NCBI GenBank assembly: GCA_903875465.1
Contig: CAIQWB010000102.1
Location: 12,167-76,166 of the forward strand
Reading direction: 5' to 3'
Source of the DNA: an uncultured Verrucomicrobia subdivision 3 bacterium
Lineage (GTDB): Bacteria > Verrucomicrobiota > Verrucomicrobiia > Limisphaerales > UBA11358
Length of the DNA: 64,000 nucleotides
Below the pieces are notes generated by a model that searched no databases, was not told the origin of the DNA, and saw nothing but the letters and a program-made list of their open reading frames with translations. A program made the position numbers and the translations under genes. This document shows positions 8,626 to 56,470 of the stretch, piece by piece. Within the stretch, counting starts at the first letter, position 1. Every line of letters begins with the position of its first letter.

Positions 8626-8639
8626 CCAAAAGAAATGAT

Positions 8640-10895: not shown

Positions 10896-10944
10896 GGGGT
10901 CATGGTAGCGATGAGGGAGCGAATTGTCCAGCCGGGGATGCGGT

Positions 10945-11979
10945 TCACATGCCGTTCAGGACATCCACCATGGCCCGCAACCGGCCATAACCCCGGCGAT
11001 TAAAATGGAAGGCGATGCGCGCCAGTTCCAAGTGGTCGCCATCCTCGATTTCCTCCGCGCTGGGCGGCACTACTGCAATCCGGCCTTCGGTCACCAATTC
11101 GGCGAAATCATCATTCAAGGCGGCAATGGCGGATTCGGAGGGTGCGTTTTTGAGGCGGATGACGAGTTGGTCCTGGACGAAGCGGGTGGAATGGTAATTA
11201 CGATGAAAGCGAGTGATGATGCGCACGGCTTCATCGGTGCTGTCCGTGATTTGGTATAAATTCAAGTCCTCGGGCGAGATGAGTTTGTCGCGCAGCAAAT
11301 GTTCGCGCACGTGCTTGTCCCAGGTTTTCCAAAACGTGCCGCCGGGGCGGTCAATTAGCACCAAAGGCATCAACTGGCATTTGCCGGTTTGCATGAGGGT
11401 GATGGTTTCGTATCCCTCATCCATGGTGCCGAACCCGCCGGGAAACAGCGCAATGGCGTCGGAATGCCGGACGAACGTGATTTTGCGGGTGAAAAAGTAT
11501 TTGAAAGTGACCAGCTTGGGGTCTTCGGCGATGATGGGGTTGGCGTTCTGTTCCCAAGGCAGGCGGATATTCGCGCCGAAGCTGTGCTCCAGGCCGGCAC
11601 CCTCGTGGCCGGCCTGCATGATGCCTGGCCCGGCCCCGGTGATGACCATGTAACCCGCCGCCACAATCTTGCGGCCAAATTCCACGGCCTGCTGGTATTC
11701 CAGCTTGTCCGGCTTGGTGCGGGCGGAACCGAAAATGGTGACCTTGCGTTTTTCGTGGTAGGGGGCAAACAGGCGGAAGGCGTAGCGCAATTCGCGGAGG
11801 GCGGTTTGAATCACCTTCACGTCGCCCTTGTCCTGAACGTCGGCCATCAGCTTCAGGGCGTTCTCAATGATGTCAGCGACCTCATTTTCGTTGTAGCCGC
11901 CCCCTTTGAACTGGATTAACTCGCGGATTTTGGCGTCCAGCACTGGATCACTGGAGATTTTTGGCTTCGGTGTTTTCAT
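10945..11979 (-). CDS. LOG-family (TIGR00730-type) nucleotide phosphoribohydrolase, long form
   Basis: GAGPGIMQAGHEGA and PGGFGTMDE motifs. Confidence 0.8.
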   Translation of the reverse strand: MKTPKPKISSDPVLDAKIRELIQFKGGGYNENEVADIIENALKLMADVQDKGDVKVIQTALRELRYAFRLFAPYHEKRKVTIFGSARTKPDKLEYQQAVEFGRKIVAAGYMVITGAGPGIMQAGHEGAGLEHSFGANIRLPWEQNANPIIAEDPKLVTFKYFFTRKITFVRHSDAIALFPGGFGTMDEGYETITLMQTGKCQLMPLVLIDRPGGTFWKTWDKHVREHLLRDKLISPEDLNLYQITDSTDEAVRIITRFHRNYHSTRFVQDQLVIRLKNAPSESAIAALNDDFAELVTEGRIAVVPPSAEEIEDGDHLELARIAFHFNRRGYGRLRAMVDVLNGM

Positions 11980-12089
11980 GGATTACCATTTAACCTTTCA
12001 CCCAGCATAGCGGGCATGGGTATTTATGCAACCGTCATGCGGAGGTTTGGCAAGTCACATTTTCAGCCAGCCATATTCTCACGCTTGCG

Positions 12090-32526: not shown

Positions 32527-32843
32527 TAGAAGCGATCCTAAAGCAGCACGGCTGTTTTGTAAACTTTCCAAGTCATTGATGGAATAAACACAAGGCAAAA
32601 TGGAGATCATCAAATTATGGATTGAAACCCCGGTTGAATGCTGAGCAAACCCGAGCAACGACGGTGTGAAATAAAACAGCAGGGGCCAAGGGCCGGGACT
32701 TTCATTCCCGGTGACTGACTGGCTAAAACCCCGGGTAAAACCGGATGGAACATCGCAAAAAATGCGCGGGCATTGACAATCCGCGCGCGGAATTCTTCGT
32801 TGACGCACCCTGATTCCTGAGTACTATGAGGGCATTGACTTAA

Positions 32844-42605: not shown

Positions 42606-42640
42606 ACAACGCCCGGCCGGGTGACCGGGCGTTGTTTTTG
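42606..42640 (+). terminator. Rho-independent terminator after fucI
   Basis: Stem acaacgcccgg / ccgggcgttgt (11 bp), 8-nt loop, then a T run. Confidence 0.8.
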
Positions 42641-42786
42641 GCTGCGGGCTGGGATTCATGCTTAGATTCGCACCCGGCAGCGAACGGCACAATTCAGTCT
42701 GTAATCAGTGGGCACCTGGCTAAAATAATGGCAGGGCAAGCCGGGGAGTTTTTAGCACAGCCTTGGGTTGGCCATGGCTGGTACAA

Positions 42787-43749: not shown

Positions 43750-44520
43750 TCATGCGCCCAAAAATTTCTGCCGTGCCGAGGCGGACAAGGCATGCAAATC
43801 GAGGATGGTCAGAAAATCGATCGTCTTAAAATCTTGGTCCAAGGCGGGCGGACCGCAAATTTTTGCCCCCAGACTCAAGTAGGCCCGGAGCAGTTTGGGG
43901 ATTTTAACGGGTTCCGGCGTGAGTTCGTGCAGGGGACACTCACAGGCTGGCAAAGGGCTGACACGCCATGGTGGCGGAGCCAGATGATGGCGGCATAAAT
44001 CGGCATAGGCGGACGCGCCCACCGCCGGTGCTTGCGAGGTGAGTGAGCTGCAACCAAACAGGTAGCGGGCGCCGTGCTGCCGGGCATATTCCGCAATGCC
44101 TTTCCAGAGCAGGCCGAGCACCACCAGGTTGCGATGTTGGGGATGCACACAGGCACGGCCCAATTCAATCAATTCGGCCCGCAACGGTTCGAAGAGCTCC
44201 AAGGCAAATTCCTGTGCACAGTAATAGCCCAGGTGCGCGGCGGCATTCGGGCCGGTTTGCAGGCGGTAGGTACCCACGATGCTGGCAGTGGGCAGATGTT
44301 CAACGACGAGATGCTGGCAAACGGCGTCAAACGGATCTTCATCCCGGCCGGTCGCGTAGGATTGGGCCAGCCCTTCATTGAGTTCCACATTAAAGACCTG
44401 AAACCGCAATCTTTGGGCAGCCCCAACATCCCCGGCATTTTGGGCCAGCCGGATGGCATATTGGGCCGGGGAACTGACCGAGACGCGAAGGATGGCACGA
44501 TCGGTTTTCATGGCGGTCAA
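43750..44520 (-). CDS. OlsB-like GNAT N-acyltransferase (ornithine-lipid / 'hemolysin-like' acyltransferase family)
   Basis: AQRLRFQVFNVELNEGL...YRLQ... pattern typical of the Acetyltransf_5/OlsB family, as I recall it. Confidence 0.6.
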   Translation of the reverse strand: MTAMKTDRAILRVSVSSPAQYAIRLAQNAGDVGAAQRLRFQVFNVELNEGLAQSYATGRDEDPFDAVCQHLVVEHLPTASIVGTYRLQTGPNAAAHLGYYCAQEFALELFEPLRAELIELGRACVHPQHRNLVVLGLLWKGIAEYARQHGARYLFGCSSLTSQAPAVGASAYADLCRHHLAPPPWRVSPLPACECPLHELTPEPVKIPKLLRAYLSLGAKICGPPALDQDFKTIDFLTILDLHALSASARQKFLGA

Positions 44521-44609: not shown

Positions 44610-44915
44610 TCATTTCTGGTTCGAGCGGAGTTGCTGCCGGATGCGCGCGCGGGCTGCCTCGGAAAGCTGCGGGGGCAAGGTTGCCACCAATTTATCCGGA
44701 TGTGCCTGGGCGGCATGGCGAAGAAAGATGATGTGCTGCCCATAGCGGCGGCACCATTGGCAAAGCAGAATGTGACAGCGCAGCCCCAACCACCGGCGAA
44801 ACGATAATTTGTGCTCCAAGGCCGCGGATTGCAGGCGGACGGCCGTTTTGCAATTCGGCGATAGCTCCAGCAGGCCCCGCAGCAGGGATTTTGCGATCTT
44901 CATCAACCAATTCAT
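44610..44915 (-). CDS. Small soluble zinc anti-sigma-like protein (zf-HC2, HxxxCxxC), paralog B
   Basis: 101 aa. SPNC...RCHILLCQWCRRY (H-x3-C-x2-C plus an upstream Cys). Alignable with the adjacent 102-aa paralog. Confidence 0.62.
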   Translation of the reverse strand: MNWLMKIAKSLLRGLLELSPNCKTAVRLQSAALEHKLSFRRWLGLRCHILLCQWCRRYGQHIIFLRHAAQAHPDKLVATLPPQLSEAARARIRQQLRSNQK

Positions 44916-44995: not shown

Positions 44996-45025
44996 TTGGT
45001 CGGAAAGTCGAAAGAATCCTTACAA
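44996..45025 (-). promoter_or_regulatory. ECF-type promoter candidate (copy B): TTGTAAGGA-N14-CGACCAA
   Basis: Minus-strand reading: AATAAATTGTAAGGA ttctttcgactttc CGACCAA. It overlaps the stop codon of anti-sigma paralog A and points at paralog B. Confidence 0.55.
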
Positions 45026-45328
45026 TTTATTACCCGCCACCATTTTCAGGTTTTTCAGGATGCGCTTTCGGGCGTCAATCGAAAGGCTGGGCAGCGTTTT
45101 AACCTGCTGGTCGACCTGGCGTCCGGCTTGCTGGAGAAACCTTAATTGTCCGGCATAGCGTTCACACCATACGCAGATGAGAAAATGCAAGCGCATGCGC
45201 AAGCGCGTGGACAGGGTCAGAGGTTGATCCAGCGACCGGGAGCTCAGGCGGGACATTTCGGCACAATTGGGGGTGTGGTTCCAGATCCACACAATTGCCT
45301 GCATTTTCAGTTTGGTGAAAGGATTCAT
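45020..45328 (-). CDS. Small soluble zinc anti-sigma-like protein (zf-HC2, HxxxCxxC), paralog A
   Basis: Start at ATG 45328 gives an ATGA overlap with the sigma-gene stop (translational coupling). Contains TPNC...LHFLICVWCERY. Confidence 0.65.
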   Translation of the reverse strand: MNPFTKLKMQAIVWIWNHTPNCAEMSRLSSRSLDQPLTLSTRLRMRLHFLICVWCERYAGQLRFLQQAGRQVDQQVKTLPSLSIDARKRILKNLKMVAGNKL

Positions 45329-46086
45329 TCGGCGATTCCCGGTTTGCCAAACCAATTGGTCTCCAGGCAACGACGCAGCGCCATGCGCGCCCGGTGGAGC
45401 ATTACCCAGAGATTGCTTTCCGAGATGTTTAGCAACGAGCAAATGTCCTTGCTGGCCACGCCGTCCACCTCGCGGAGGTTGAAAACGGCGGCAACATTCT
45501 TGGGGAGATTATTTGAGCAATCCTGGAAGGTTTTCCAAAACATTTCACTGTCCAGACTCGCCCCGGGACTGGCCCAATCCTGGGGGCCAAGCTCGTGAAT
45601 CCAGCCATCCTTGAAGAGGCCATCGGGAACGAACCGCTCGCCTTCCTCGTCCGAGTAGAATTCCAAGTCGGTGAACGGTGTTTCGCGGCTGGACTGGCGG
45701 TAATAGTCGTAAATCTTGTTTTTCAAAATCCCCACCAACCAGCTTTTCTCGGCGGCACGGCCGGCAAAACTCCTGCCCCCCTTGAGCGCGGCCAGGAAGG
45801 TTTCCTGCACCGCATCTTCCGCCCGGGCTTGGTCGCGCAAGCGGAGCAGCGCATATTTGAACAGGTAATCGCCATGCAAATCCACCCACTGTTCCGGATC
45901 GGAAAGCTGGCCGGTCGGCGGCGGATTTTCCGCCGGGAGCGGTGGTTGCGGTTGGTTTGGACGGTCAGTCGGCACGGGCTTAGTATCCGCCTTCAGCCAA
46001 AAAAATGCAATTCCCGAGCTGCGGCCGGGAAACCCGCGGGCGAAATAGTTTGTAAGGATTCGTTTTGGTCCACGACTCACCCCCAT
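45325..46086 (-). CDS. ECF-type RNA polymerase sigma factor; N-terminus uncertain
   Basis: Region 2 (DAVQETFLAALKG..., WLVGILKNKIYDYYR) and region 4 (ICSLLNISESNLWVMLHRARMALRRCLE). The first ~70 codons are Pro-rich and overlap promoter copy C, so an in-frame GTG at 45975 is a plausible real start. Confidence 0.85.
   Translation of the reverse strand: MGVSRGPKRILTNYFARGFPGRSSGIAFFWLKADTKPVPTDRPNQPQPPLPAENPPPTGQLSDPEQWVDLHGDYLFKYALLRLRDQARAEDAVQETFLAALKGGRSFAGRAAEKSWLVGILKNKIYDYYRQSSRETPFTDLEFYSDEEGERFVPDGLFKDGWIHELGPQDWASPGASLDSEMFWKTFQDCSNNLPKNVAAVFNLREVDGVASKDICSLLNISESNLWVMLHRARMALRRCLETNWFGKPGIAE
46050..46079 (+). promoter_or_regulatory. ECF-type promoter candidate (copy C): TTGTAAGGA-N14-CGACTCA
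   Basis: AATAGTTTGTAAGGA ttcgttttggtcca CGACTCA. Points toward the FMN-reductase genes. An ATG lies 6 nt after the CGACTC hexamer. Confidence 0.5.
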
Positions 46087-46308: not shown

Positions 46309-46899
46309 ATGATCGTCATTATCAGTGGAACCAATCGAAACGGCAGCAACACCCGCAAAGTGGCTGCCCATGTGGAAAAAGCTTATGGCACGCTCGGTGT
46401 GCCCGCCCAAATCATCGATCTCGCCCAATTGCCGCCGGAGATATATTTACCGTCTGCCTATGATAAAACCCCGGCCGCTTTCCAGCCTTTCATCGATAAG
46501 ATTCTCGCGGCCGATGGATTGGTGGTCGTCACGCCCGAATATAACGGAGGTATTCCCGGCGCCCTGAAGTATTTTATCGACATGCTGCCGTTTCCGGACA
46601 GTTTTGACCAGCGGCCGGTTTGTTTTGTGGGCCTGGCGGCGGGGCTCTGGGGGGCCATGCGGCCGACCGAGCAGTTGCAGCAGATTTTTGCCTACCGCCA
46701 CGGACTGGTCTTTCCGGAGCGCGTTTTTCTGCCCGGGGTCAACAACCTGCTGGACTCTACGGGCCGGTTGCAGCCGGTCATCGAAAGAAATCTGCTGCAG
46801 CAGGCCACGAAATTCGCTCGATTTGTGGAAAAGCTCCGGGAGAAAAAATTTGCCCGGGCAACGGAAGCGCCGGCAAGCGTGAGTTTGCCCACGGCCTAA
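46309..46899 (+). CDS. NAD(P)H-dependent FMN reductase family oxidoreductase (paralog 1)
   Basis: MIVIISGTNRNGSNTRKVA...VVVTPEYNGGIPGALKYFID is an FMN_red fold signature. Confidence 0.82.
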   Translation: MIVIISGTNRNGSNTRKVAAHVEKAYGTLGVPAQIIDLAQLPPEIYLPSAYDKTPAAFQPFIDKILAADGLVVVTPEYNGGIPGALKYFIDMLPFPDSFDQRPVCFVGLAAGLWGAMRPTEQLQQIFAYRHGLVFPERVFLPGVNNLLDSTGRLQPVIERNLLQQATKFARFVEKLREKKFARATEAPASVSLPTA

Positions 46900-46903
46900 A
46901 TCC

Positions 46904-47455
46904 TTGGCACCCATGATTCTGATTATTAGTGGCACCAACCGGCCCGGCAGCAATACCCGCAAGGTGGTAGCCCAGTTGGAAGCCATTTATTCCGCTCTGA
47001 GTGTGCCGGTCCAGGTGCTGGATCTGGCGCAATTGCCCCCGAGCATTATTCTGCCTTCCGTTTATGCGCAGAAGCCCATCGAATTCCAATCATTCAGCGA
47101 CGCGGTGCGCGCGGCGGAGGGACTGGTGGTGGTGACGCCGGAATACAACGGGAGCTTTCCCGGCATATTAAAGTACTTTATGGACCTGCTGCCGTTTCCG
47201 GAAAGTTTTGAGCACCGCCCGGTTTGTTTTGTGGGGCTGGCCGCCGGCATGTGGGGTGCCCTGCGCGCGGTGGAGCAACTGCAGGCCATCTTTGGCTATC
47301 GCAACGCCCATATCTTTCCGGAGCGGGTGTTTATTCCGGGCGTTGCCAAAATGGTGGATGCGGCAGGGCGATTCGCGAATACGGACATGGAACAGCGCTT
47401 GGAAAAACAGGCGGCCGGGTTTGTGGATTTTGTAAAAAAACTCAAGGCTAAATAA
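46904..47455 (+). CDS. NAD(P)H-dependent FMN reductase family oxidoreductase (paralog 2)
   Basis: MILIISGTNRPGSNTRKVV...VVVTPEYNGSFPGILKYFMD. Tandem paralog of the previous gene. Confidence 0.82.
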   Translation: MAPMILIISGTNRPGSNTRKVVAQLEAIYSALSVPVQVLDLAQLPPSIILPSVYAQKPIEFQSFSDAVRAAEGLVVVTPEYNGSFPGILKYFMDLLPFPESFEHRPVCFVGLAAGMWGALRAVEQLQAIFGYRNAHIFPERVFIPGVAKMVDAAGRFANTDMEQRLEKQAAGFVDFVKKLKAK

Positions 47456-47456
47456 A

Positions 47457-47486
47457 TTGTAAGGAATCCTTCACCTCCTCGACCAA
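47457..47486 (+). promoter_or_regulatory. ECF-type promoter candidate (copy A): TTGTAAGGA-N14-CGACCAA
   Basis: AATAAATTGTAAGGA atccttcacctcct CGACCAA. ATG 47495 lies 9 nt after the CGACCA hexamer. Confidence 0.55.
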
Positions 47487-48064
47487 TGCTGGATATGAAC
47501 ATTAAATCAACCAACCGTTTCATCGTCCGCGTGGCTTTATTTTTGGCGATCGCCACCGCCGCCTTTCATTTGCCGGCGGCCGAGCCGCCAAAGGTGGGTG
47601 CCCCCACGCCGGACTTCACGCTTAACACCATGGATGCGAAGTCTGTAACGTTGAGTGCGGAGTACGCCAAACTGCCCGTGGTATTGATCGTTTTGCGCGG
47701 GTGGCCGGGGTACCAGTGTCCATTTTGCACCAGGCAAGTGCACGCGTTTGTGGAACGGGCCAAGGATTTTGCGGGCAAGGCTCGTGTCCTCATGGTTTAT
47801 CCCGGCCCGTCAGAAAATCTGCAAAGCCACGCCGGGGAATTCCTGAAGGGTAAAGGGTGGTCGGAAGATTTCACCTTCGTCACCGACCCCGATTTTACTT
47901 TCACTAAAAGCTTCGGCTTGCGGTGGCAGGCTCCCGGCGAGACGGCTTATCCGTCCACTTTTGTGATTGATACCAAGGGGATTGTGCAGTTCGAAAAAAT
48001 CACCAAAGGCCATGGTGGTCGCACGACTCCGGAAGAAATCCTGGCGGCTCTGGCCAAGCTCTAA
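47486..48064 (+). CDS. Secreted thioredoxin-fold redoxin / peroxiredoxin-like protein (CPFC)
   Basis: WPGYQCPFCTRQ CxxC motif. Signal peptide MNIKSTNRFIVRVALFLAIATAAF if started at ATG 47495, which fits promoter copy A better than 47486. Confidence 0.78.
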   Translation: MLDMNIKSTNRFIVRVALFLAIATAAFHLPAAEPPKVGAPTPDFTLNTMDAKSVTLSAEYAKLPVVLIVLRGWPGYQCPFCTRQVHAFVERAKDFAGKARVLMVYPGPSENLQSHAGEFLKGKGWSEDFTFVTDPDFTFTKSFGLRWQAPGETAYPSTFVIDTKGIVQFEKITKGHGGRTTPEEILAALAKL

Positions 48065-48315
48065 TGGCCACGGTCTTGCTATTGCTCGGCGGATATCTCC
48101 TCTTGGGGATGTTGTTTGCCGTTCCCTTTGCTTTCATAGGGGCGCAAAGAATTGACCCCCACGCGGCGGGGGCAGGCTGGGGTTTTCGCCTCCTCCTCAT
48201 TCCGGGTGCGGTGGCATTTTGGCCCTGGCTGTTGCATCGGTGGCGCACGGGCGTGCATGAGCCTCCGGTTGAGCGTACGGCTCACCGTGAGGCTGCGCGG
48301 AAAGGCCGGCCATGA
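48064..48315 (+). CDS. Small two-TM hypothetical membrane protein
   Basis: TAATG overlap with the upstream gene and ATGA overlap with the downstream gene. Hydrophobic helices LLLLGGYLLLGMLFAVPFAFI and FRLLLIPGAVAFWPWLL. Confidence 0.55.
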   Translation: MATVLLLLGGYLLLGMLFAVPFAFIGAQRIDPHAAGAGWGFRLLLIPGAVAFWPWLLHRWRTGVHEPPVERTAHREAARKGRP

Positions 48316-48803
48316 TCCAACCATTGCGCCAGCTCCATCGTCGCGCGACTCTGATACTGGGCATTTTTGTGCCCGCGGCGTTTGCCACCGGCCTCATTTT
48401 GCGCACGCCCGCGCCCACTATGCCCGGGTTTTCTCCGGGACTTGGCCTGGCACCTCAAGCCATGACGAGCACGGGTTGGTGCCGCACGAATCTGTTTCCG
48501 AAAGGTGCGATAACCGTGCGACTGTTCCGGGAGAACCCGCCACTTTCGCGGGCGGTCGTCAGTTTTTCAGCGGATCCTGATTTTCGGCAACCCGATTTGC
48601 TGGTTTATTGGCTGCCGGGAAGCCCCATGGTGGCGGACGCACTGCCGGATAGTGCCACTTTATTGGGCGAGTTTGCGGCGCCGGCATTGCCCCTCCCAAC
48701 TGAAGCCTCCGCCCGCCCGGGGGTGTTTGTCCTATACAGTCTGGCGGATAACAAGATAGTGAATATCTCCCGGCCGGCCCTTATCGGCGAGCTCAACCCC
48801 TGA
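48312..48803 (+). CDS. Hypothetical membrane-anchored protein
   Basis: N-terminal TM ATLILGIFVPAAFATGLIL. Translationally coupled within the operon. Confidence 0.55.
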   Translation: MIQPLRQLHRRATLILGIFVPAAFATGLILRTPAPTMPGFSPGLGLAPQAMTSTGWCRTNLFPKGAITVRLFRENPPLSRAVVSFSADPDFRQPDLLVYWLPGSPMVADALPDSATLLGEFAAPALPLPTEASARPGVFVLYSLADNKIVNISRPALIGELNP

Positions 48804-48817
48804 CCATTATTTAATTC

Positions 48818-49855
48818 ATGTCCCTCCAATACCAGGCGGTCCAATGGAACCGGCAAAAGCGCCTGTACGATGCCGTGCTGGTGGGTGGGGTGGCGTTATA
48901 CCTCTTGGGTTTTGGCGCGGTGACGGAATTCCTATTCCCCAACATCACCGAGGAAATTTTGCTGATGCGGGCGTTTGGCTCGGCCGCCTTTATTTTGCTT
49001 CACATTATTCTGTGCATCGGTCCGCTGGGTCGCCTAAACGCGGGCTTTTTGCCCCTGCTGTACAATCGGCGTCATGCGGGGGTGACGTTATTTCTGCTGG
49101 CATTGATCCATGCGGTGATGGTGGTTACGACATACCATGCCGGCGGGGACACGAATCCGATTGCCAGTATCTGGGTGTCCAGTCCGTTGACTCATTCAGT
49201 GGCGGGGGTGCCTTTCCAGGCGTTCGGCTTTTTGGCATTGGTGATTTTGTTTTTGATGGCGGCAACCAGCCATGATTTCTGGCTGGCCAATTTGAGCGCG
49301 CCGGTTTGGAAATCGCTGCACATGCTGGTTTATGCCGCCTATGCGCTGCTGGTCTTGCATGTCACCTTTGGGGTGCTGCAAGCGGAAACCAGCCTGGTTT
49401 ATGCAGTGACGATGGCGGCTGGCCTGGTCACGGTGCTGGGGTTGCACGGCTTGGCCGCGAGCAAGGAAGCGCGGTTGGATCGAAAAATAAACGCCCCGGA
49501 TACTGACGGTTGGGTGGAGGCCGGTGCAGTGGCGGATATTCCCGATAACCGCGCGCGCATTGTGTGTGTGGCTGGCGAGCGGGTGGCTATTTTTAAGTAT
49601 GCGGGGAAAATCTCCGCCGTTTCAAATGTTTGTCAGCACCAGAATGGGCCGCTGGGGGAGGGTAAAATAGTGGCGGGCTGTATCACCTGTCCCTGGCATG
49701 GCTATCAGTATTTGCCGGAGACGGGGGCTTCGCCGCCACCCTTTGTGGAGCGCGTTCCCACCTTTCAAGTGCGCTTGAAAAACGGCCGGGTATGGGTAAA
49801 TCCCCAGCCAAATCCTGCCGGGACCAGGGCGGAACCGGCGGTGATTGAGCTATGA
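48818..49855 (+). CDS. Fusion of a ferric-reductase-like (YedZ/MsrQ-type, His-rich) transmembrane domain with a C-terminal Rieske [2Fe-2S] domain
   Basis: Six TM segments with conserved His (LLHIILC, LIHAV, SHDFW, LHMLVY, LHVTFG). Rieske motifs CQHQNGPL ... CPWHGYQY. Confidence 0.78.
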   Translation: MSLQYQAVQWNRQKRLYDAVLVGGVALYLLGFGAVTEFLFPNITEEILLMRAFGSAAFILLHIILCIGPLGRLNAGFLPLLYNRRHAGVTLFLLALIHAVMVVTTYHAGGDTNPIASIWVSSPLTHSVAGVPFQAFGFLALVILFLMAATSHDFWLANLSAPVWKSLHMLVYAAYALLVLHVTFGVLQAETSLVYAVTMAAGLVTVLGLHGLAASKEARLDRKINAPDTDGWVEAGAVADIPDNRARIVCVAGERVAIFKYAGKISAVSNVCQHQNGPLGEGKIVAGCITCPWHGYQYLPETGASPPPFVERVPTFQVRLKNGRVWVNPQPNPAGTRAEPAVIEL

Positions 49856-50619
49856 GTGATGATTTTTACATTGGCTGGGAAGCCCGGCCAGGAGCGGGCC
49901 CGGCCCGGCGGTTGCGGACCCTCGTGGTGCTGTTGCTGGTGGTGGGGCTTGGGCTGGCCGTGGCACTGGCCACCCAGCAACACACCATTGGGACCAGTGT
50001 GTTTGAATGGGGCAACCTGAAGCCATTTAGCGGGCGCTTGGAACTCCAACCCTATCCGCATCTCTTGGTGCCTCGACCGGGTGCCACCAACTCCCAGCCG
50101 GGGTTTTCCACTTATTATCTCGTCGCCCCCTTCAAACATGGACTTGACCGGGAGAAGTTTGGCGCCCTGGAAGGACAGATGGTGACCTTGCAAGGCACCT
50201 TGATTTATCGTGGCGATCAAACCATGGTTGAGGCCGTGCCGGATTCCATCCACGCGGTGGCGAGTCCAGCTTCCCTGCCGACGGGCGCGGCGACGGTGCG
50301 TCTGGGGCGGCAAACCCTCGTGGGTGAGATTGTGGACAGCAAATGTTATTTTGGGGTGATGAATCCCGGCCAACTGCTGCCGCACCGGGCCTGCGCGATC
50401 AATTGCATCAGCGGAGGTATTCCGCCGGTCTTGCTGGTGCGCCCAAAAAATGGTCCGGCCATTTATTTGTTGCTGGTGTCCGCCTTGGGAAAACCCGTGA
50501 ACCAGCAGGTGCTGGACTTCGTGGCCGAACCGGTGGAAATTACTGGTGAGGTTGAATGGCAGGACGGCCTGCTCATTTTGCGGGCTGATCCGCAGACTTA
50601 CCGGCGGGTGGGGCGATGA
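49852..50619 (+). CDS. Hypothetical membrane-anchored protein with a C-x15-C-x3-C motif
   Basis: ATGA-coupled to the Rieske gene. TM LRTLVVLLLVVGLGLAVALA, and Cys motif SKCYFGVMNPGQLLPHRACAINCISGGIPP. Confidence 0.65.
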   Translation: MSDDFYIGWEARPGAGPARRLRTLVVLLLVVGLGLAVALATQQHTIGTSVFEWGNLKPFSGRLELQPYPHLLVPRPGATNSQPGFSTYYLVAPFKHGLDREKFGALEGQMVTLQGTLIYRGDQTMVEAVPDSIHAVASPASLPTGAATVRLGRQTLVGEIVDSKCYFGVMNPGQLLPHRACAINCISGGIPPVLLVRPKNGPAIYLLLVSALGKPVNQQVLDFVAEPVEITGEVEWQDGLLILRADPQTYRRVGR

Positions 50620-50659
50620 GGAGATTTTTGCCCGGGAGAACTATATCACCAATCAACCC

Positions 50660-51583
50660 GTGAACCGACAGCCCTTGAACTTTTTGCGTGGTTACCGATC
50701 CTCCCCATTTTCCGGGTGGGTGGCGGGCGCCGTAGCGTTGGGCCTGCTCATCGCGCTGCCCGCGTTTGCCGGCATGTTCGCTCAATTTGACAATCCTGAA
50801 CGGCTCGGGGCGATGGTGCATGTCACCACGACCAATGGCTTCACCCTTCGCTGGGCGGAAAAACGTTCCGCTACCAACACCGGGCTGGACTTGGTCTTTA
50901 TCCACGGATCACCGGGCGGGGCCGGGGTTTGGGCGTCGCAATTTAAGGCCCCTTATCCGGGTGCTAGCCTCTATGCTTACGACCGCCCAGGCTTTGGTCT
51001 TTCCCTGCCGGTGGGGAACCAGCCGCATTTGCGAGGGCAGGTGGACGCTTTGATGGTGTTGCTGGCCCGTGCCACCACCAACCGAGTTTTACTGGTGGGG
51101 CATAGTTATGGTTCCCCCATTGCCCTGCTGGCCGCCTTGGAGCATCCGGACCAAATCGGGGGCGTGTTGCTGATCGGGGGGGATGTGGATCCGGCGCAGG
51201 AAAACCCGTGGTTCGTGCAATATTTTTTTGGCTGGCGCGCCACCTCCTGGCTGTTGCCACGCGCGTTGCGCCAATGCAACCGTGAGATGCTCTCCGCGCG
51301 CGCGGACCTGGTCCAAATGCAAACCCAATTTGCCCGGCTGGCCGTGCCGGTGGTGATGTTGCATGGCGACCATGATCCGCTGGTGCCCGTGGAAAATGTG
51401 GCCTGGTTCGAACAACAGCTCGCCGCTCTGGGCAAAGCGAACCTCTTCGCCAAAATCATCCTGCCCGGGGTGAATCATTTTATCCCGTGGGAACATCCTG
51501 GTGAAGTCGAGCGGGGCATCCGTCTACTCATCAATATGGCTGCTGGTCCAGGTGGAGCCTCCGATACCCAGATCCGGCCTTAA
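50660..51583 (+). CDS. Secreted alpha/beta hydrolase
   Basis: GTG start at 50660 gives a signal-like N-terminus (NRQPLNFLRGY...GLLIALPAFAG) and removes the overlap with the upstream gene. HGSPGG and GHSYGS nucleophile elbow. Confidence 0.75.
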   Translation: MNRQPLNFLRGYRSSPFSGWVAGAVALGLLIALPAFAGMFAQFDNPERLGAMVHVTTTNGFTLRWAEKRSATNTGLDLVFIHGSPGGAGVWASQFKAPYPGASLYAYDRPGFGLSLPVGNQPHLRGQVDALMVLLARATTNRVLLVGHSYGSPIALLAALEHPDQIGGVLLIGGDVDPAQENPWFVQYFFGWRATSWLLPRALRQCNREMLSARADLVQMQTQFARLAVPVVMLHGDHDPLVPVENVAWFEQQLAALGKANLFAKIILPGVNHFIPWEHPGEVERGIRLLINMAAGPGGASDTQIRP

Positions 51584-51606: not shown

Positions 51607-51636
51607 TTGTAAGTTTTGCCGCGCGTGGCCGACGAA
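51607..51636 (+). promoter_or_regulatory. ECF-type promoter candidate (copy E, weaker): TTGTAAGTT-N14-CGACGAA
   Basis: ttcgaTTGTAAGTT ttgccgcgcgtggc CGACGAA, 35 nt upstream of the DUF2934 ATG. Confidence 0.45.
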
Positions 51637-51670
51637 TCATTGTAATCCACTAATAATACAATTGCCAAAA

Positions 51671-51871
51671 ATGAAAAAAACCAGGAAAAAAAATCCGCCC
51701 GCTGAAATCAAGCTTCCACCGCCGGTAGTGTTTGACTATGAACTGGAAATCAATCGCCGGGCCTATGAATTATGGGAAGCGGCGGGCGGCGGGCATGGTG
51801 ACGACCTGCGTCACTGGCTGGTCGCTGAGCGTGAATTTCAGGCGCGCCGCCAGTCCGACAAGGCGCAGTAA
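51671..51871 (+). CDS. DUF2934-type small protein
   Basis: INRRAYELWEAAGGGHGDDLRHWLVAEREF matches the DUF2934 pattern (R.AYELWE..G...G.D...W..AE). Confidence 0.7.
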   Translation: MKKTRKKNPPAEIKLPPPVVFDYELEINRRAYELWEAAGGGHGDDLRHWLVAEREFQARRQSDKAQ

Positions 51872-51895: not shown

Positions 51896-51927
51896 CAACG
51901 CCGGGCGCCGTCCGGCGTTGTTTGTTT
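51896..51927 (+). terminator. Rho-independent terminator
   Basis: Stem caacgccgg / ccggcgttg, loop gcgccgt, then tttgttt. Confidence 0.75.
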
Positions 51928-52128: not shown

Positions 52129-52158
52129 GTGTAAGGAATGATGTTTAATTAAGACCAA
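52129..52158 (+). promoter_or_regulatory. ECF-type promoter candidate (copy D): GTGTAAGGA-N14-AGACCAA
   Basis: AATAAGGTGTAAGGA atgatgtttaatta AGACCAA. ATG 52166 lies 8 nt after the AGACCA hexamer. Confidence 0.5.
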
Positions 52159-52165: not shown

Positions 52166-52618
52166 ATGAAAAAACTATCATTGATTCTGCTTGTGCTGGG
52201 CCTGGCGCTGCCAGTTTTTGCCCAAACCAAAACCCTCCTCAACCTGGACCGTGACGGTCTGGCCATCCAAGGCTATGACCCGGTGGCCTTTTTTACCGAC
52301 CAAAAGCCGGTCAAAGGCGACGCGAAATATGTGTTCAAGCATGAAGGGGCCGTCTACTTTTTTGCATCCAAAGAGCACCGGGACCTTTTCAAGACGAACC
52401 CGGCCAAGTATGAACCGGTGTTTGGCGGGTATTGTGCTTATGGCGTTTCGCGCAACAAGCTGGTGGAAATTGACGTGGATGCCTTCCAAATTGTGGATGA
52501 CAAATTGCTGCTGCAATACAGCAAATCCATCCGTGAGGATTTCAATAAAGATGCCAAAGCCAATCTGGCCAAAGCGGATGCCAACTGGCCGGCGCTGGTT
52601 GCCAAGAAAGGCAAATAA
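52166..52618 (+). CDS. Secreted YHS-domain protein (GGYCAYG type)
   Basis: Signal peptide MKKLSLILLVLGLALPVFA. GYDPVAFF...YFFASKEHRDLF..NP.KY.P.FGGYCAYG. Confidence 0.72.
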   Translation: MKKLSLILLVLGLALPVFAQTKTLLNLDRDGLAIQGYDPVAFFTDQKPVKGDAKYVFKHEGAVYFFASKEHRDLFKTNPAKYEPVFGGYCAYGVSRNKLVEIDVDAFQIVDDKLLLQYSKSIREDFNKDAKANLAKADANWPALVAKKGK

Positions 52619-52657: not shown

Positions 52658-53062
52658 ATGGAAAACTTTTCCAAGACCCAGATGATCGTCAGCTGGATAT
52701 GCCGGCTCACGGCGGCGGTGATTTTATTGCAAACCTTGTTTTTTAAATTTACCGGGGCGCCGGAGTCCATCTACATTTTCACCAAGGTTGGCATGGAGCC
52801 TTGGGGGCGGTACGGCTCAGGAGTGGTGGAGTTGGTGGCGGCCATGTTGTTGATGGTGCGCTGTAAAGCCTGGCTGGGGGCTTTGCTCGCGCTGGGCACG
52901 ATGTGCGGGGCGATTTTTTTTCACCTGACGATTCTCGGTATCAGTGTCCAAAACGATGGCGGATTGCTGTTTGCCCTGGCGATCGTGACTTCGGTATGCT
53001 GTGGCATCACGCTCTATCTGCACCGGCGGCAGATTCCGTACGTTTCACGATTAATCAACTAA
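52658..53062 (+). CDS. DoxX-family membrane protein
   Basis: 134 aa, four TM. The R.TAAVILLQTLFFKFTG start is typical of DoxX. Confidence 0.65.
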   Translation: MENFSKTQMIVSWICRLTAAVILLQTLFFKFTGAPESIYIFTKVGMEPWGRYGSGVVELVAAMLLMVRCKAWLGALLALGTMCGAIFFHLTILGISVQNDGGLLFALAIVTSVCCGITLYLHRRQIPYVSRLIN

Positions 53063-53069: not shown

Positions 53070-53618
53070 ATGAATCCAAATGATGCTGGCGAAAGCCGGG
53101 AATTAATCAATGCAGTCATGGAAACGCTGCGCCAGGGCGAATTTCTGCTGCAGGAAATGGATAATGCTGCTTATACCTGCAAGCTGGCGGTGGCCTTTGA
53201 CGCTTCCATCGGCGGGCATATCCGGCATTGCCTGGATCATTTTCGCACCCTCCTGCAGGCGGCCCCGGCGGGTGATTTAAATTATGATCAACGCCAGCGC
53301 GGCACCGCGGTGGAAACAGATCGACTGGCGGCGCTCCAGGAAACGCGGGATTTAATCGCAAGTTATGCCAAGCTCGATCCACTCTGCACGGCGCGGTCCT
53401 TGCTGGTGACCTGCAAAACCAGCTATTCAGCCGGTGGCTCGCAAGTTTCCCCCTCCACGGTGGGCCGTGAGATCATGTATGCCGTCGCGCACGCGGTCCA
53501 TCACTACGCGTTGATCGGGGTCATGGGTGGCGTCATGGGCTTGCGGTTGCCCGCGGGCTTCGGCATCGCCCCATCCACCCTCAAACACCAGGCCGAAGCG
53601 GCGCGAATCGCCGCCTGA
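53070..53618 (+). CDS. DinB-superfamily (DinB_2-like) metal-dependent protein
   Basis: Spaced His residues in helices (GGHIRHCLDHF ... AVAHAVHHYALIG), as in the DinB four-helix-bundle His triad. Confidence 0.55.
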   Translation: MNPNDAGESRELINAVMETLRQGEFLLQEMDNAAYTCKLAVAFDASIGGHIRHCLDHFRTLLQAAPAGDLNYDQRQRGTAVETDRLAALQETRDLIASYAKLDPLCTARSLLVTCKTSYSAGGSQVSPSTVGREIMYAVAHAVHHYALIGVMGGVMGLRLPAGFGIAPSTLKHQAEAARIAA

Positions 53619-53623: not shown

Positions 53624-55276
53624 ATGACCGGAGCCCTGCCATTGGCCCCCGAAACCCTTGCAGGATGGCTGCCGTTTTGGCAGGCCGCCGGATTTTTTTG
53701 TGCGACCTTTGTGCTGGAGGATGCGGCGGCAGTCGGTGCCGGTTTGCTGCTGGCCAGTGGCTCCATTGCCTGGCCTGCCGCTTTTTCCGCCTGTTTTCTG
53801 GGCATTTGGCTGGGGGATGTGGGGCTTTACGCGCTCGCCCGCTTTGCGGGGCGAACGTGGTTTGAAAATTCGCGGTTGAAAAAGTATTCCGGCAAAGTTG
53901 CCCGCAGTGAGAATTGGTTTCGCGAGCGCGGGACGATGATATTAATCGTTAGCCGGGCGGTGCCCGGGGCAAGGCTGCCCACCTATCTGGCCGCAGGTTT
54001 TTTGCGGGTGCCCGCCGTTGCTTTTTTGTTGATCACTGCGGCTGCCGCGCTGGTATGGACGCTGGCCGTGTTATTCCTGACGCAAATGTTCGGCACGCGT
54101 CTGTTGCATTGGTTCAGCCATTACAAATCGGTCAGCTTTTGGGTGTTGGGCAGCGCCGTTGGATTGCTGGTTGGTTTGCGAATATTGCGCCGGGTGCTGT
54201 CCGATTTGGACCGCCGCCGGTTGGGCACCCGCTTTGTCCGCTGGACGCGCTGGGAATTTTGGCCCATGTGGCTGTTCTATCCTCCCGTGGCTCTTTATTA
54301 CCTCTGGCTCGCCCTCAAATATCGTGGGGCCATGCTGCCGACCGCAGCCAATCCCGGAATCTTCTCAGGGGGCATGGTGGGGGAATCCAAAATGAAAACT
54401 TTGCAAGATCTCATGCACTCAAGCGGCGAGTTCACGGCGGAAGCGGAGCTGCTCGCCGGCGATTCCCCCAAAGGCCGGCTGATTTCATTGCGTGCGATTT
54501 GTGAGCGCCGAAATATTTCCTATCCTTTCATCCTCAAACCGGATCTGGGACAACGCGGTGCCGGCATCAAACTGATTCGGAATGAAGCCCAGGCCGTGGC
54601 GTATTTGCAGGAAACCCAAGCGCAGTTAATGGTGCAGCGGTTTGCCGCCGGCCCGCACGAAGTGGGGATTTTTTATTATCGTTTCCCCGGGGAAACTCAC
54701 GGCCGTATTTTTGCCATCACCGAAAAAGTTTTTCCCTTCGTCACCGGCGATGGCAAAGCCACGGTGGCGGAACTTATCTGGCGGGATGACCGTGCCCGCT
54801 TTATGGCGGAAACCTATTTGCAACGCGCGGGTTCACGGCAACACCATGTGCTGGCCGCGGGGGAAACGCAACCGCTCGGCCTGGCGGGCAACCACGCCCA
54901 AGGCTGTATCTTTCGTGACGGTATGAGACTGAACACGCCCGCACTGGAACAGCGCATTGATGAAATCTCCAAAAAGGTGAGCGGCTTCTACATTGGTCGT
55001 TATGACATCCGGTTTGGGAGTGAGGCAGACTTGCGCCAGGGCACCCATTTTCAAATTATCGAATTAAATGGCGCGGCGGCTGAAGCCACCAGCATTTACG
55101 ATGCGCGCAACACTTTGTGGTCCGCGTATCGCACCTTGTTTCGGCAGTGGGATTTGGTGTTTGCCATTGGGGCGGCCAACCGGCGGCGCGGCTGTGCGCC
55201 CATGACCATGCGGGATGGCTGGCGCGCCTGGCGCCATTATGCCGCGCTCGCCGCCACGTATCCGGCCGCCGACTAG
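53624..55276 (+). CDS. Fusion of a DedA/VTT-type membrane domain with a C-terminal ATP-grasp ligase domain
   Basis: N-terminus FVLEDAAAVGAGLL...WLGDVGLYALARFAGR (DedA-like) plus several TM. C-terminus YPFILKPDLGQRGAGIKLI...MVQRF...EVGIFYYR...IELNGAAAE (ATP-grasp-like). Confidence 0.62.
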   Translation: MTGALPLAPETLAGWLPFWQAAGFFCATFVLEDAAAVGAGLLLASGSIAWPAAFSACFLGIWLGDVGLYALARFAGRTWFENSRLKKYSGKVARSENWFRERGTMILIVSRAVPGARLPTYLAAGFLRVPAVAFLLITAAAALVWTLAVLFLTQMFGTRLLHWFSHYKSVSFWVLGSAVGLLVGLRILRRVLSDLDRRRLGTRFVRWTRWEFWPMWLFYPPVALYYLWLALKYRGAMLPTAANPGIFSGGMVGESKMKTLQDLMHSSGEFTAEAELLAGDSPKGRLISLRAICERRNISYPFILKPDLGQRGAGIKLIRNEAQAVAYLQETQAQLMVQRFAAGPHEVGIFYYRFPGETHGRIFAITEKVFPFVTGDGKATVAELIWRDDRARFMAETYLQRAGSRQHHVLAAGETQPLGLAGNHAQGCIFRDGMRLNTPALEQRIDEISKKVSGFYIGRYDIRFGSEADLRQGTHFQIIELNGAAAEATSIYDARNTLWSAYRTLFRQWDLVFAIGAANRRRGCAPMTMRDGWRAWRHYAALAATYPAAD

Positions 55277-55290
55277 ACCACAACCAGACC

Positions 55291-56022
55291 ATGTGCACCG
55301 TTACTTTTTCCCCGCGGCGGCGCGGCTACGCGCTGGCCATGAATCGCGATGAAAAACTTTCCCGTGCAACTGGTTTGCCACCCATTCGGCATTTCATTCA
55401 AGGGCGAAATGTGCTCGCGCCCTCCGAGCCGGGCGGCGGAACGTGGATCTCGGTGAATGACTCGGGAGCCGCTTTTGCCTTGATCAATTGGTACGCCATC
55501 GCCGCCCAGGTGGAAATTGGCCCAGTCAGCCGGGGGAAGGTGGTTTTTGCCGTGAGTGCAGTCGCCACCGGTGAAGCGGCAGCCAGTGCTTTGGCACAAA
55601 TGCCGCTCCACTCGGTGAATCCCTTTCGTCTTATCGGTGCTTTTCCGGCGGCCCAAGAAATCCGGGAGTGGCGCTGGGATTTAAAAAAGTTGGTGCAGGC
55701 GGCGCATCCGTGGCGCTTGCAGCAATGGATTTCATCCGGTTTCGATGAACCCACGGCCCAACTGATGCGGGGCCAAGTTTTTCAAGCCGCGAGCGCACAA
55801 AAATCTGTTGGCTCACTGGCGTGGTTGCGCCGCCTGCACCGCTCCCACACCCCGATTGCCGGGCCATTTTCGACCTGTATGCACCGCGTGGATGCCGCCA
55901 CGGTAAGCTATTCCGAAGTGCGCGTGAGCAGCGATGCTGCCAAGATGAATTATTTCGCCGGTGCGCCCTGTCAATGTGCGGGTGGTGTGCCTGATAAAGC
56001 CATGGTAATGTTGTCAAAATAA
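55291..56022 (+). CDS. NRDE-family (TANGO2-like) protein with N-terminal Cys (Ntn-hydrolase-like)
   Basis: MCTVTFSPRRRGYALAMNRDEK carries Cys2 and a literal NRDE motif. Start at ATG 55291, not the long ORF start at 55117. Confidence 0.8.
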   Translation: MCTVTFSPRRRGYALAMNRDEKLSRATGLPPIRHFIQGRNVLAPSEPGGGTWISVNDSGAAFALINWYAIAAQVEIGPVSRGKVVFAVSAVATGEAAASALAQMPLHSVNPFRLIGAFPAAQEIREWRWDLKKLVQAAHPWRLQQWISSGFDEPTAQLMRGQVFQAASAQKSVGSLAWLRRLHRSHTPIAGPFSTCMHRVDAATVSYSEVRVSSDAAKMNYFAGAPCQCAGGVPDKAMVMLSK

Positions 56023-56359: not shown

Positions 56360-56385
56360 AAAAAAGCCCGGTCTTGCGACCGGGC
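56360..56385 (-). terminator. Rho-independent terminator downstream of tRNA-fMet
   Basis: Minus-strand reading: gcccggtc gcaa gaccgggc followed by T6. Confidence 0.8.
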
Positions 56386-56393
56386 GTTGAAAT

Positions 56394-56470
<77 letters not shown>

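Follow-up and report, generated by a model that had tools for sequence, protein, structure and literature searches.

A conserved four-gene module, g2–g5, as a proposed route for electrons to the bacterial envelope in Verrucomicrobiota and other phyla

We analysed a 64,000-nucleotide (nt) stretch of contig CAIQWB010000102.1 from an uncultured Verrucomicrobia subdivision 3 bacterium, hereafter called the window, and within it six consecutive genes of the forward strand, g1 to g6 (Table 1). An earlier note on this DNA had described these genes as one tightly coupled envelope redox operon of stoichiometrically expressed products. Comparison with related loci indicates that the evolutionary unit is g2-g3-g4-g5, not the six genes. 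With a confidence only a little above even, we favour the reading that g2–g5 form a four-subunit inner-membrane complex, an outward single-electron conduit that would be induced by stress in this lineage and would supply the envelope with reducing power.

All six open reading frames (ORFs) are present where the earlier note had placed them, and the junctions were read directly from the sequence: TAATG at 48062-48066 between g1 and g2, ATGA at 48312-48315 between g2 and g3, a gap of 14 nt (48804-48817) between g3 and g4, and ATGA at 49852-49855 between g4 and g5. The gap between g5 and g6 is 40 nt (50620-50659), given the GTG start of g6 at 50660; the public gene calls on identical contigs contain the same gene set with the same g6 start, which yields the 307-amino-acid (aa) hydrolase. 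The domain calls made earlier for g1, g4, and g6 were confirmed with Pfam and NCBIfam. The other three products, in which no motif had been named and for which profile searches had been proposed, match no characterised family: g2, g3, and g5 each remained without a Pfam or NCBIfam match above cut-off and without a PDB sequence match, even with profiles.

How far is this gene order kept in relatives? A g5 profile was scanned over one genome per GTDB species, and at least 587 stretches were confirmed. The 80 best of these, which were used for the spread over phyla, come from Verrucomicrobiota, Kiritimatiellia, Lentisphaerota, Planctomycetota, Acidobacteriota, and Gemmatimonadota, as well as from Bacteroidota/Rhodothermia, Calditrichota, KSB1, Myxococcota, and Krumholzibacteriota. 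Neighbours were counted in 82 loci (L001–L082). When all ORFs of these loci were compared with the proteins of the window, g5 found a match in 82, g4 in 77, g2 in 68, and g3 in 60, while g6 found one in 12, g1 in six, and the FMN reductases encoded upstream of g1 in four to six. Moreover, family hidden Markov models placed g2, g3, and g4 each upstream of g5 in 66 of the 69 informative loci, namely those with enough DNA upstream of g5. The order is therefore kept for four of the genes and is lost for g1 and g6, and neither the idea of six genes as one stoichiometric unit nor that of the thiol redoxin g1 as a defining component was borne out.

The physical coupling of the four genes is also conserved. 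The 4-nt overlap of g2 and g3 recurs in 46 of 55 related loci, and spacings of at most 30 nt separate g3 from g4 in 56 of 60 loci and g4 from g5 in 54 of 74; since this tight spacing recurs across many phyla, it is not a matter of chance. In two loci (L014 and L029), g2 and g3 share one ORF. Natural fusions of a ferric reductase domain (FRD), a Rieske domain, and g5 occur three times in the representative library (P0279, P0286, and P0295; 563, 603, and 631 aa), and these fusions support a tie between g4 and g5. Finally, in L001 and L002 (g4 78% identical to that of the window; P0022), the module begins at g2 and has neither the redoxin nor the FMN reductases. It is because of this distribution, the coupling, the fusions, and the L001/L002 layout that we regard g2–g5 as the unit.

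The central protein, g4, combines a Pfam Ferric_reduct domain (PF01794; residues 54-179, 46.4 bits against a cut-off of 28) with a C-terminal Rieske domain (PF00355; residues 232-304, 56 bits against 20.3). The Rieske ligands C272, H274, C291, and H294 (C-x-H…C-x2-H), and the histidine pairs H86/H98 of transmembrane (TM) helix 3 and H168/H181 of TM5, which are spaced by 12 and 13 residues, are all at least 90% conserved in 75 homologues. Loss of the Rieske or haem ligands in relatives had been named earlier as a ground for abandoning the electron-conduit idea; the ligands are kept. Through the TM3/TM5 pairs, g4 is predicted to carry a di-haem b domain. More than 8000 homologues of g4 were found in a database search, and the family is under strong constraint, because the best 120 of them are 73–100% identical. 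The protein has six hydrophobic segments, with lysine and arginine concentrated at the N-terminus, in loops 2 and 4, and along the linker that follows TM6. Because of this positive-inside charge distribution, we infer an N-in/C-in topology, the arrangement common to all FRD proteins, which would place the Rieske domain in the cytoplasm. The order Rieske–TM–OB in the fusions is consistent with this topology of g4 and with a C-terminal domain of g5 that would lie outside the membrane, in the periplasm.

Among solved structures, dioxygenase ferredoxins are nearest to the Rieske part of g4 (2qpz, 3e-10; CarAc). Its cluster loops, C-Q-H-Q-N-G-P-L and C-P-W-H-G-Y, contain no extra cysteine pair of the high-potential (bc1/b6f-type) Rieske proteins and, because these disulfide cysteines are missing, the domain can be classed by its sequence as a low-potential-type electron-input domain. 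Pfam gave no FAD_binding_8 and no NAD_binding_6 match in g4, of which the C-terminal domain is a Rieske domain and not the dehydrogenase of NOX and long FRE proteins. The sole mention of an FRD–Rieske architecture that we found is the uncharacterised model M4 of Zhang et al. 2013 (PMC3591440). Literature on FRD–Rieske fusions, on the neighbour combination TANGO2/DinB/DedA/ATP-grasp/OlsB, on YHS selenoproteins with DoxX, and on ECF/DoxX/Rieske combinations contained no description of the module.

The g5 family is large, with 2123 homologues in a word-indexed search and 1905 clusters at 50% identity in an exhaustive search. Sixty diverse members (38–60% identity) share the invariant block G-E-I-V-D-S-K-C-Y-L-G-V-M-N-P-G-x2-K-x-H-R-A-C-A-x-R-C-I-S-G-G-I-P-P, in which K164, C165, M170, H178, C181, and C185 (K-C…M…H-x2-C-x3-C) are invariant. 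The AlphaFold2 (AF2) model is confident, with a predicted local distance difference test (pLDDT) score of 93; it starts with a TM helix at the N-terminus and continues with two OB-folds in tandem. In this model, H178, C181, and C185 lie on one face of the helix 176-187, and C165 and M170 lie in the short helix before it. This Cys/His/Met site looks like a metal or redox centre, with Cu, Fe, Zn, Fe-S, haem bound via Met/His, and a thiol/disulfide as the candidates. We propose g5, which represents an undescribed family, as the electron acceptor or catalytic subunit. Foldseek retrieved generic two-OB folds (of the SSB or LysRS N-domain type; TM-scores of 0.2–0.28), from which the function is not inferable.

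Several candidate relationships of g5 were rejected. DUF5818 appeared with E-values of at least 0.003 in 4 of the 60 members, and a superoxide reductase fragment with an E-value of 0.99; we took both as noise. The TRASH/YHS motif has the form C-x19-22-C-x3-C. The cysteine spacing of g5, C-x15-C-x3-C, is not of this kind, and g5 has no Pfam YHS match; an hhalign comparison with the co-located YHS family gave a probability of 0.4%, a weak test in that this family itself has no TRASH cysteines. No truncated match that would point to selenocysteine at the g5 cysteines was seen at these positions in the loci with a scan pattern that itself demanded C165.

The two small partners, g2 and g3, are likewise conserved. 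Seventeen residues of g2 are at least 90% conserved, including D31, W53, P54, R59, and H74; a DUF6338 match to g2 (E-value 0.04) was taken as noise. In g3, the N-terminal motif M-I-x-P-L-R-x2-H-R is strongly conserved, as are PDLLVYW and LYSLA. The AF2 model of g3 shows a helix (3-29) followed by about seven strands, and the protein is predicted to have a cytoplasmic N-terminal motif, one TM helix, and a periplasmic Ig/FnIII-like beta-sandwich. Foldseek found generic Ig/FnIII folds alone (E-values of at least 0.1), and the function of g3 is therefore not inferable from its fold.

How would such a complex work? We propose that a cytoplasmic flavoprotein—here probably a member of the NAD(P)H:FMN reductase pair encoded upstream of g1—reduces the [2Fe-2S] cluster of the g4 Rieske domain. 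The electron would then pass the membrane via two b-type haems held by the TM3 and TM5 histidine pairs, and would reach the periplasmic centre of g5, formed by C165, M170, H178, C181, and C185 on the second OB-fold. The TM hairpin of g2 and the anchored Ig-like domain of g3 may serve as structural or docking subunits, each with its conserved cytoplasmic motif. In this lineage, oxidative or thiol stress would induce the module along with several secreted thiol proteins, namely the g1 redoxin, a YHS protein of a Cys/Sec family, and DoxX, and the job of the module would be to bring reducing power to the envelope. The terminal substrate of g5 could be a metal ion, a thiol protein, or a lipid head group. 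The transmembrane electron conduit suggested in the earlier note thus gains support from the ligand conservation in the 75 homologues, the charge distribution, and the FRD–Rieske–g5 fusions. The characterised members of the FRD family (NOX, FRE, STEAP, and MsrQ) all pass electrons outward (PMC3591440).

The genes on either side of the four may be considered as accessories. The g1 protein matches Pfam AhpC-TSA/Redoxin and has a thioredoxin-like active site, C-P-F-C. Against the named peroxiredoxin, Tpx, and BCP models of NCBIfam, it scores at most 22 bits (cut-offs of at least 123), and all of its NCBIfam matches, for example to SelL-related and peroxiredoxin models, are weak and sub-threshold. 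The true start of g1 is probably ATG 47495 (M-N-I-K-S-T-N-R-F…), not ATG 47486. A promoter-like -10 element ends at 47483, and ATG 47486 follows after only 3 nt, while the distance from the motif to ATG 47495 is 37 nt and a normal signal peptide is retained; we prefer the latter because 37 nt fits the near-constant 29–37 nt found upstream of the YHS gene. By its distribution, g1 can be regarded as a lineage-specific accessory.

The other flanking gene, g6, matches Pfam Abhydrolase_1/6. Outside Verrucomicrobiota, abhydrolase, DedA/VTT, and ATP-grasp-like parts form a single protein of about 860–950 aa (L082, L070, L046, and L080); in L082 (11621-14299), this fusion has 893 aa, and g6 corresponds to its N-terminal domain. 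In the window, the parts are split into g6 and the 550-aa DedA/VTT–ATP-grasp-like gene, with four other genes between them. Because of the fusion in other phyla, we assign g6 to a different module: judged by these architectures, it is a split-off domain, lineage-specific as a separate gene, that belongs with the second module described below.

The pair of FMN reductase paralogues adjoins g1, lying 30 nt upstream on the same strand, and its products are candidate NAD(P)H-dependent cytoplasmic electron donors. In L055 (8788-10272), a Lentisphaerae metagenome-assembled genome (MAG), a fusion of Rieske and FMN_red domains directly follows g5. This fusion suggests such a donor, and so does the position of the pair behind a copy of the promoter-like motif that also precedes g1. 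We also observed that the pair is a tandem duplication, with 70% nucleotide identity over 300 nt between 46309-46608 and 46913-47212, and that a fusion of a Rieske domain with a thiamine-pyrophosphate enzyme lies upstream of the module in L080 (1127-3133), a Myxococcota MAG.

In the window, the four genes lie within a group of genes that share a promoter-like motif. The "motif copy A" behind which the earlier note had placed the operon is real: AAATAAnnTGTAAGGAAT occurs in 4 copies in the window against 0.01 expected. The core, TGTAAG-N16-(C/A)GAC, has the form of a promoter for a sigma factor of the extracytoplasmic function (ECF) type; exact copies of it occur five times in the window and nowhere outside the cluster (Table 1). 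A scan for sigma-70 promoters, by comparison, found 6 against 5.9 expected and thus no enrichment. In the 82 loci, the motif has 100 matches against about 4 expected, and in relatives it is kept upstream of the g2, g1, FMN_red, YHS, DoxX, and OlsB-like genes. Verrucomicrobial relatives have the motif 29–37 nt before the YHS start and 32–78 nt before most g2 starts, and the near-constant spacing to YHS suggests very short or absent leaders. A hairpin of 11 pairs downstream of g6, the strongest of the region, probably ends the transcripts of g1–g6 and the DUF2934 gene.

A divergent ECF sigma factor gene and two small anti-sigma-like genes are encoded next to the FMN reductases. The sigma gene and the first anti-sigma-like gene overlap by 4 nt, and the two anti-sigma-like paralogues score 51.1 and 46.2 bits against family NF052368 (cut-off 50). 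With its sigma domains, the H-x3-C-x2-C motif, and the repeated promoter-like motif, this set has the sequence features of an ECF sigma/zinc anti-sigma pair. On account of the shared motif, we place the operon of this lineage in the predicted regulon of this sigma factor and the two zinc-anti-sigma-like proteins; since such anti-sigma proteins are RsrA/MseR-like, the inducing signal would be oxidative or thiol stress. An ECF sigma gene adjoins the module in 14 of the 21 full-length Verrucomicrobial loci. In relatives, the same motif stands before a lipoprotein MsrB (SelR; the signal peptide ends in F-V-S-C) and before a secreted TlpA-like W-C-P-P-C thioredoxin, which is followed by DUF1223. 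This arrangement, with divergent motif copies in L007 (Table 1), is similar in L006, L008, L011, and L029; in the window, MsrB, the TlpA-like thioredoxin, and DUF1223 are not present, and the DUF2934 gene occupies that slot. The periplasmic repair role suggested earlier is thereby supported indirectly, through the shared promoter motif.

This arrangement resembles known ECF sigma systems. In Haemophilus influenzae RpoE2/HrsE, which is induced by HOCl, and in Neisseria SigE/MseR, periplasmic MsrAB and a DoxX operon are under the control of a small cytoplasmic anti-sigma factor (PMC7907618). Like these two and SigR/RsrA of Streptomyces, the present system has an ECF sigma factor with a small soluble H-x3-C-x2-C anti-sigma-like protein, here encoded divergently and, unlike in those systems, as two paralogues. 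As in the regulons of RpoE2/HrsE and SigE/MseR, periplasmic Msr (in relatives), DoxX-like, and thiol proteins are included (PMC7907618). The g2–g5, YHS, VTT/ATP-grasp-like, TANGO2-like, and OlsB-like genes are not described as members of any of these three regulons.

The second module of the cluster begins with the YHS gene. Its product scores 145 bits against a cut-off of 70 for the NCBIfam model "YHS domain-containing (seleno)protein", and the family has a single invariant cysteine, in F-G-G-Y-C-A-Y-G. The gene is present in 18 of the 21 full-length Verrucomicrobial loci, against 3 of 21 outside Verrucomicrobiota. The genes of this module and the OlsB-like gene accompany g2–g5 in 20–35 of the 82 loci, across phyla. 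The typical order outside Verrucomicrobiota, on one strand, is g2-g3-g4-g5-OlsB-like-(OlsA-like)-DinB-like-TANGO2-like-[abhydrolase-VTT-ATP-grasp-like]. Among the 21 full-length non-Verrucomicrobial loci, the OlsB-like gene directly follows g5 on the same strand in 12, and VTT/ATP-grasp-like and DinB-like genes are present in 10 and 9, respectively; an OlsA-like PF01553 acyltransferase gene follows the OlsB-like gene in 19 loci. The OlsB-like protein of the window belongs to Acetyltransf_5, while its scores against the OlsB equivalogs are 146–149 bits, with cut-offs of 320–350.

Table 1. Features of the cluster in the window, and the MsrB, TlpA-like, and DUF1223 genes of locus L007
Feature	Position	Strand	Length	Description or evidence
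OlsB-like N-acyltransferase	43750-44520	-		Acetyltransf_5, Pfam 1e-27
Anti-sigma-like protein, second	44610-44915	-	101 aa	C…H-x3-C-x2-C motif
Anti-sigma-like protein, first	45020-45328	-	102 aa	C…H-x3-C-x2-C motif
Promoter-like motif	45024-44999	-		before second anti-sigma-like gene and OlsB-like gene
ECF sigma factor	45325-46086	-		Sigma70_r2 and r4_2
Promoter-like motif	46051-46076	+		before FMN reductase pair
FMN reductase paralogue	46309-46899	+		Pfam FMN_red 2e-34
FMN reductase paralogue	46904/46913-47455	+		Pfam FMN_red 1.5e-31
Promoter-like motif	47458-47483	+		before g1 ("motif copy A")
g1	47486-48064	+	192 aa	secreted thioredoxin-fold redoxin
g2	48064-48315	+	83 aa	two-TM hairpin, basic cytoplasmic tail (predicted)
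g3	48312-48803	+	163 aa	anchored Ig/FnIII-like protein (predicted)
g4	48818-49855	+	345 aa	six-TM ferric-reductase-type domain and C-terminal Rieske domain
g5	49852-50619	+	255 aa	N-terminally anchored, two tandem OB-folds (AF2 model)
g6	50660-51583	+	307 aa	anchored or secreted alpha/beta hydrolase; GTG start
Promoter-like motif	51608-51633	+		before DUF2934 gene
DUF2934 gene	51662-51871
Terminator-like hairpin	51896-51920	+		11 pairs, 8 G-C; strongest in region
Promoter-like motif	52130-52155	+		before YHS-DoxX-182aa-VTT-TANGO2 unit
YHS (seleno)protein-family gene, secreted	52166-52618	+		Pfam, NCBIfam
DoxX	52658-53062	+		Pfam, NCBIfam
Weakly DinB-like gene	53070-53618	+	182 aa	weak DinB_2 similarity
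DedA/VTT + ATP-grasp-like gene	53624-55276	+	550 aa	Pfam, NCBIfam
TANGO2-like gene	~55280-56022	+		Pfam, NCBIfam
MsrB (L007)	10215-10805	-		divergent motif copies
TlpA-like (L007)	10887-11414	+		divergent motif copies
DUF1223 (L007)	11481-12290	+		divergent motif copies

Other features were observed in and around the cluster. A pair of G+C-rich, hairpin- or terminator-like elements (42608-42648 and 56363-56403), 78% identical over 41 nt, brackets the cluster from 42.6 to 56.4 kb. A fusion of a CHASE2 sensor domain with a Ser/Thr protein kinase lies just downstream (56755-58767, + strand), and an ORF of 2897 aa is present elsewhere in the window (24115-32808, - strand). Verrucomicrobial loci have as further recurrent neighbours an FGE-sulfatase-domain protein, a GMC oxidoreductase (19 loci), a short-chain dehydrogenase (15), and a glyoxalase-fold protein (13), which are found at L001 2757-3941 (- strand), L037 2210-4018, L028 4382-5092, and L014 9176-10363.

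Several observations weigh against the conduit as we propose it. The spacing of the TM3 histidines in g4 is 12 residues, against 14 in NOX2, and the model of g3 is moderately confident at best (pLDDT 78). The FRD–Rieske–g5 fusions are metagenome gene calls, with none among the 82 genome loci, and some of them could be single-base assembly errors, because g4 and g5 overlap by ATGA. FMN reductases stand beside the module in so few loci that, as a rule, the donor must be another protein or one with its gene at a distance, and the thioredoxin-like partners and the ECF sigma factor are largely confined to Verrucomicrobiota. Outside this phylum, the commonest neighbours are the OlsB/OlsA-like, DinB-like, TANGO2-like, and abhydrolase–DedA–ATP-grasp-like genes, which points to a lipid-linked role that our reading leaves unexplained. 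The conduit might then serve these proteins as redox partner in a pathway for aminolipids or envelope lipids, by reducing or modifying the head group of an outer-leaflet lipid or by giving electrons to a lipid-modifying step. The neighbour counts given above speak for such a role, including the OlsA-like gene of 19 loci, and so do the ECF promoter motif that the same genes bear in Verrucomicrobiota and the insertion of g6, a split-off domain of the second module, right after g5. The association is nevertheless seen in about half of the loci, not in all, and the OlsB-like protein is so far below the equivalog cut-offs that a lipid product is not assignable. In L043 (g5 at 7980-8747) and L062, moreover, OlsB-like and DinB-like genes are kept beside a g5 that has no g2–g4 upstream, and the gene before g5 in L043 is of a different kind. 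In these two loci, g2–g4 may sit at another place in the genome, or the partner of g5 may be a different one, and the linkage may concern g5 alone or reflect co-regulation. We know of no aminolipid modification that needs a periplasmic electron supply, which we also count against this role, and we consider it decidedly unlikely.

An unlikely but serious possibility is that the module acts as a periplasmic metal reductase or metallochaperone, in which g4 would be a ferric or cupric reductase and g5 would bind Cu or Fe and hand the reduced metal to, for example, the secreted YHS-family protein. This would refine the conduit model by naming its terminal substrate. The haems give single electrons, which suit a metal acceptor better than a disulfide, and the invariant C, M, H, and C-x3-C of g5 are a typical soft-metal ligand set; we take the C-x3-C with a histidine to recall Sco proteins, and Cu binding by an OB-fold to recall CusF. 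FRD-family enzymes are known to reduce Fe(III) and Cu(II) (PMC3591440), and the YHS gene is a frequent companion in the full-length Verrucomicrobial loci. However, this companion is rare beside the module in other phyla, its single invariant cysteine looks redox-catalytic rather than suited to metal trafficking, and g5 has no profile similarity to the YHS family. Cu/Fe transporters, P-type ATPases, multicopper oxidases, and oxidase-assembly genes were not found among the conserved neighbours. The original six-gene complex, in which the conduit would reduce the secreted CxxC redoxin in a DsbD-like manner, feed a peroxidase or repair activity, and include the hydrolase in the machine, is highly improbable in our judgement. 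The TAATG coupling of g1 to g2, the short gaps, the shared promoter motif before g1, and the periplasmic thioredoxin-like proteins and MsrB in the regulon of relatives fit it, while the scarcity of g1 and g6, the L001/L002 modules that begin at g2, and the fusion of g6 to the VTT/ATP-grasp-like protein elsewhere contradict it; one-electron haem donors are, in addition, ill-suited to direct two-electron reduction of a disulfide, and no DsbD/CcdA or MsrP homologues were found with Pfam and NCBIfam among the cluster genes. To inward flow, from a periplasmic substrate oxidised by g5 through the haems to the Rieske domain, or to a NOX-like oxidase producing superoxide or H2O2, we give almost no credence. 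Bacterial NOX-type FRD enzymes do exist (PMC5676040), and the direction of flow is here only inferred. Nevertheless, outward transfer by all characterised FRD proteins (PMC3591440) and the low-potential ferredoxin type of the g4 Rieske domain argue against inward flow, the invariant g5 site and the g4–g5 fusion would be left unexplained by a NOX role, and the production of reactive oxygen species by an oxidative-stress regulon would be counterproductive.

Returning to the outward conduit, how does it compare with the systems already characterised? As in MsrPQ (YedYZ), an FRD-family membrane haem protein would pass cytoplasmic reducing equivalents to a dedicated periplasmic partner encoded adjacently, the electrons would come from a cytoplasmic flavin reductase (Fre in the case of MsrQ, and FMN_red in our proposal), and the context would be oxidant (HOCl) stress. 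The partner g5, however, is a double-OB-fold Cys/His/Met protein of an undescribed family and not a molybdoenzyme; no MsrP-like molybdopterin enzyme was found, either in the genes between 39.8 and 58.8 kb or in the conserved neighbourhood of the module. Unlike YedZ-type proteins, in which the first TM3 histidine is replaced by arginine (PMC3591440), g4 has all four haem histidines and a fused Rieske domain. It scores 32.5 bits against the MsrQ equivalog NF003831 (cut-off 130), and with g2 and g3 the module also has a pair of small conserved subunits that MsrPQ lacks. The analogies to MsrQ/MsrP and DsbD drawn in the earlier note are useful as working analogies only, in view of this score and of the lack of MsrP-like and DsbD/CcdA-like genes.

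The g4 protein is similar to NOX, FRE, the bacterial long bFRE, and STEAP in its predicted six-TM core, where histidine pairs in TM3 and TM5 would hold two haems, in the C-terminal fusion of a cytoplasmic input domain, and, presumably, in outward electron transfer. The input domain differs, being a Rieske [2Fe-2S] domain in place of the FAD/NADPH dehydrogenase of NOX/FRE, and a protein subunit seems to accept the electrons in place of the free O2 or metal chelate used by NOX, FRE, and STEAP. As in the pathway from DsbD/CcdA through TlpA-like proteins to periplasmic Msr, cytoplasmic reducing power would be delivered to periplasmic thiol and repair proteins, and in relatives a lipoprotein MsrB and a TlpA-like thioredoxin fall under the same regulation as the module. 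The thioredoxin-like partners are, however, not universal neighbours of the module, no cluster gene has a Pfam or NCBIfam match to the DsbD/CcdA membrane domain, and the conduit would use haem and Fe-S one-electron carriers instead of a thiol-disulfide cascade. The dioxygenase Rieske ferredoxins (NDO ferredoxin, CarAc, BphF, and HcaC), which receive their electrons from NAD(P)H flavoprotein reductases, resemble the C-terminal domain of g4 most closely in sequence and have in common with it the ligand motif and the absence of the high-potential disulfide. They differ in being soluble shuttles, while the g4 domain is tethered to a membrane di-haem domain, and the cluster has no oxygenase component of the kind found in ring-hydroxylating dioxygenase systems. 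By these comparisons, g2–g5 is best described as a proposed case of FRD-based transmembrane electron transfer, akin to MsrPQ and other FRD systems, yet it falls outside MsrPQ, the long form of NOX/FRE, and DsbD.

The periplasm is free of ATP and NAD(P)H, and to our knowledge the inner-membrane routes by which reducing power reaches it are few, namely DsbD/CcdA, MsrQ, and quinol- or cytochrome-linked enzymes. If our reading is true, the module adds a further route. We suggest, tentatively and with more doubt than belief, that g2–g5 is a widespread, unrecognised class of conduit, composed of a Rieske–haem b fusion and three families missing from current databases, that extends over more than 10 phyla and over 580 species-level genomes. 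It would have a new periplasmic Cys3-His-Met centre, of redox or metal type, on the double-OB-fold subunit g5, would provide a haem/Fe-S alternative to DsbD/CcdA, and would be coupled to an aminolipid pathway (OlsB/OlsA-like, DedA–ATP-grasp-like, and TANGO2-like). The module is abundant in poorly studied phyla that are ecologically dominant in soil and freshwater, including Verrucomicrobiota, Acidobacteriota, Planctomycetota, and Gemmatimonadota. It gives a testable context to three large unannotated families, of which g5 alone comprises about 1900 clusters at 50% identity, and the conserved ECF promoter makes it possible to ask by experiment under which conditions the system is active. Its linkage to the OlsB/OlsA-like, DedA, and TANGO2-like genes hints at a connection between envelope redox and aminolipid metabolism.

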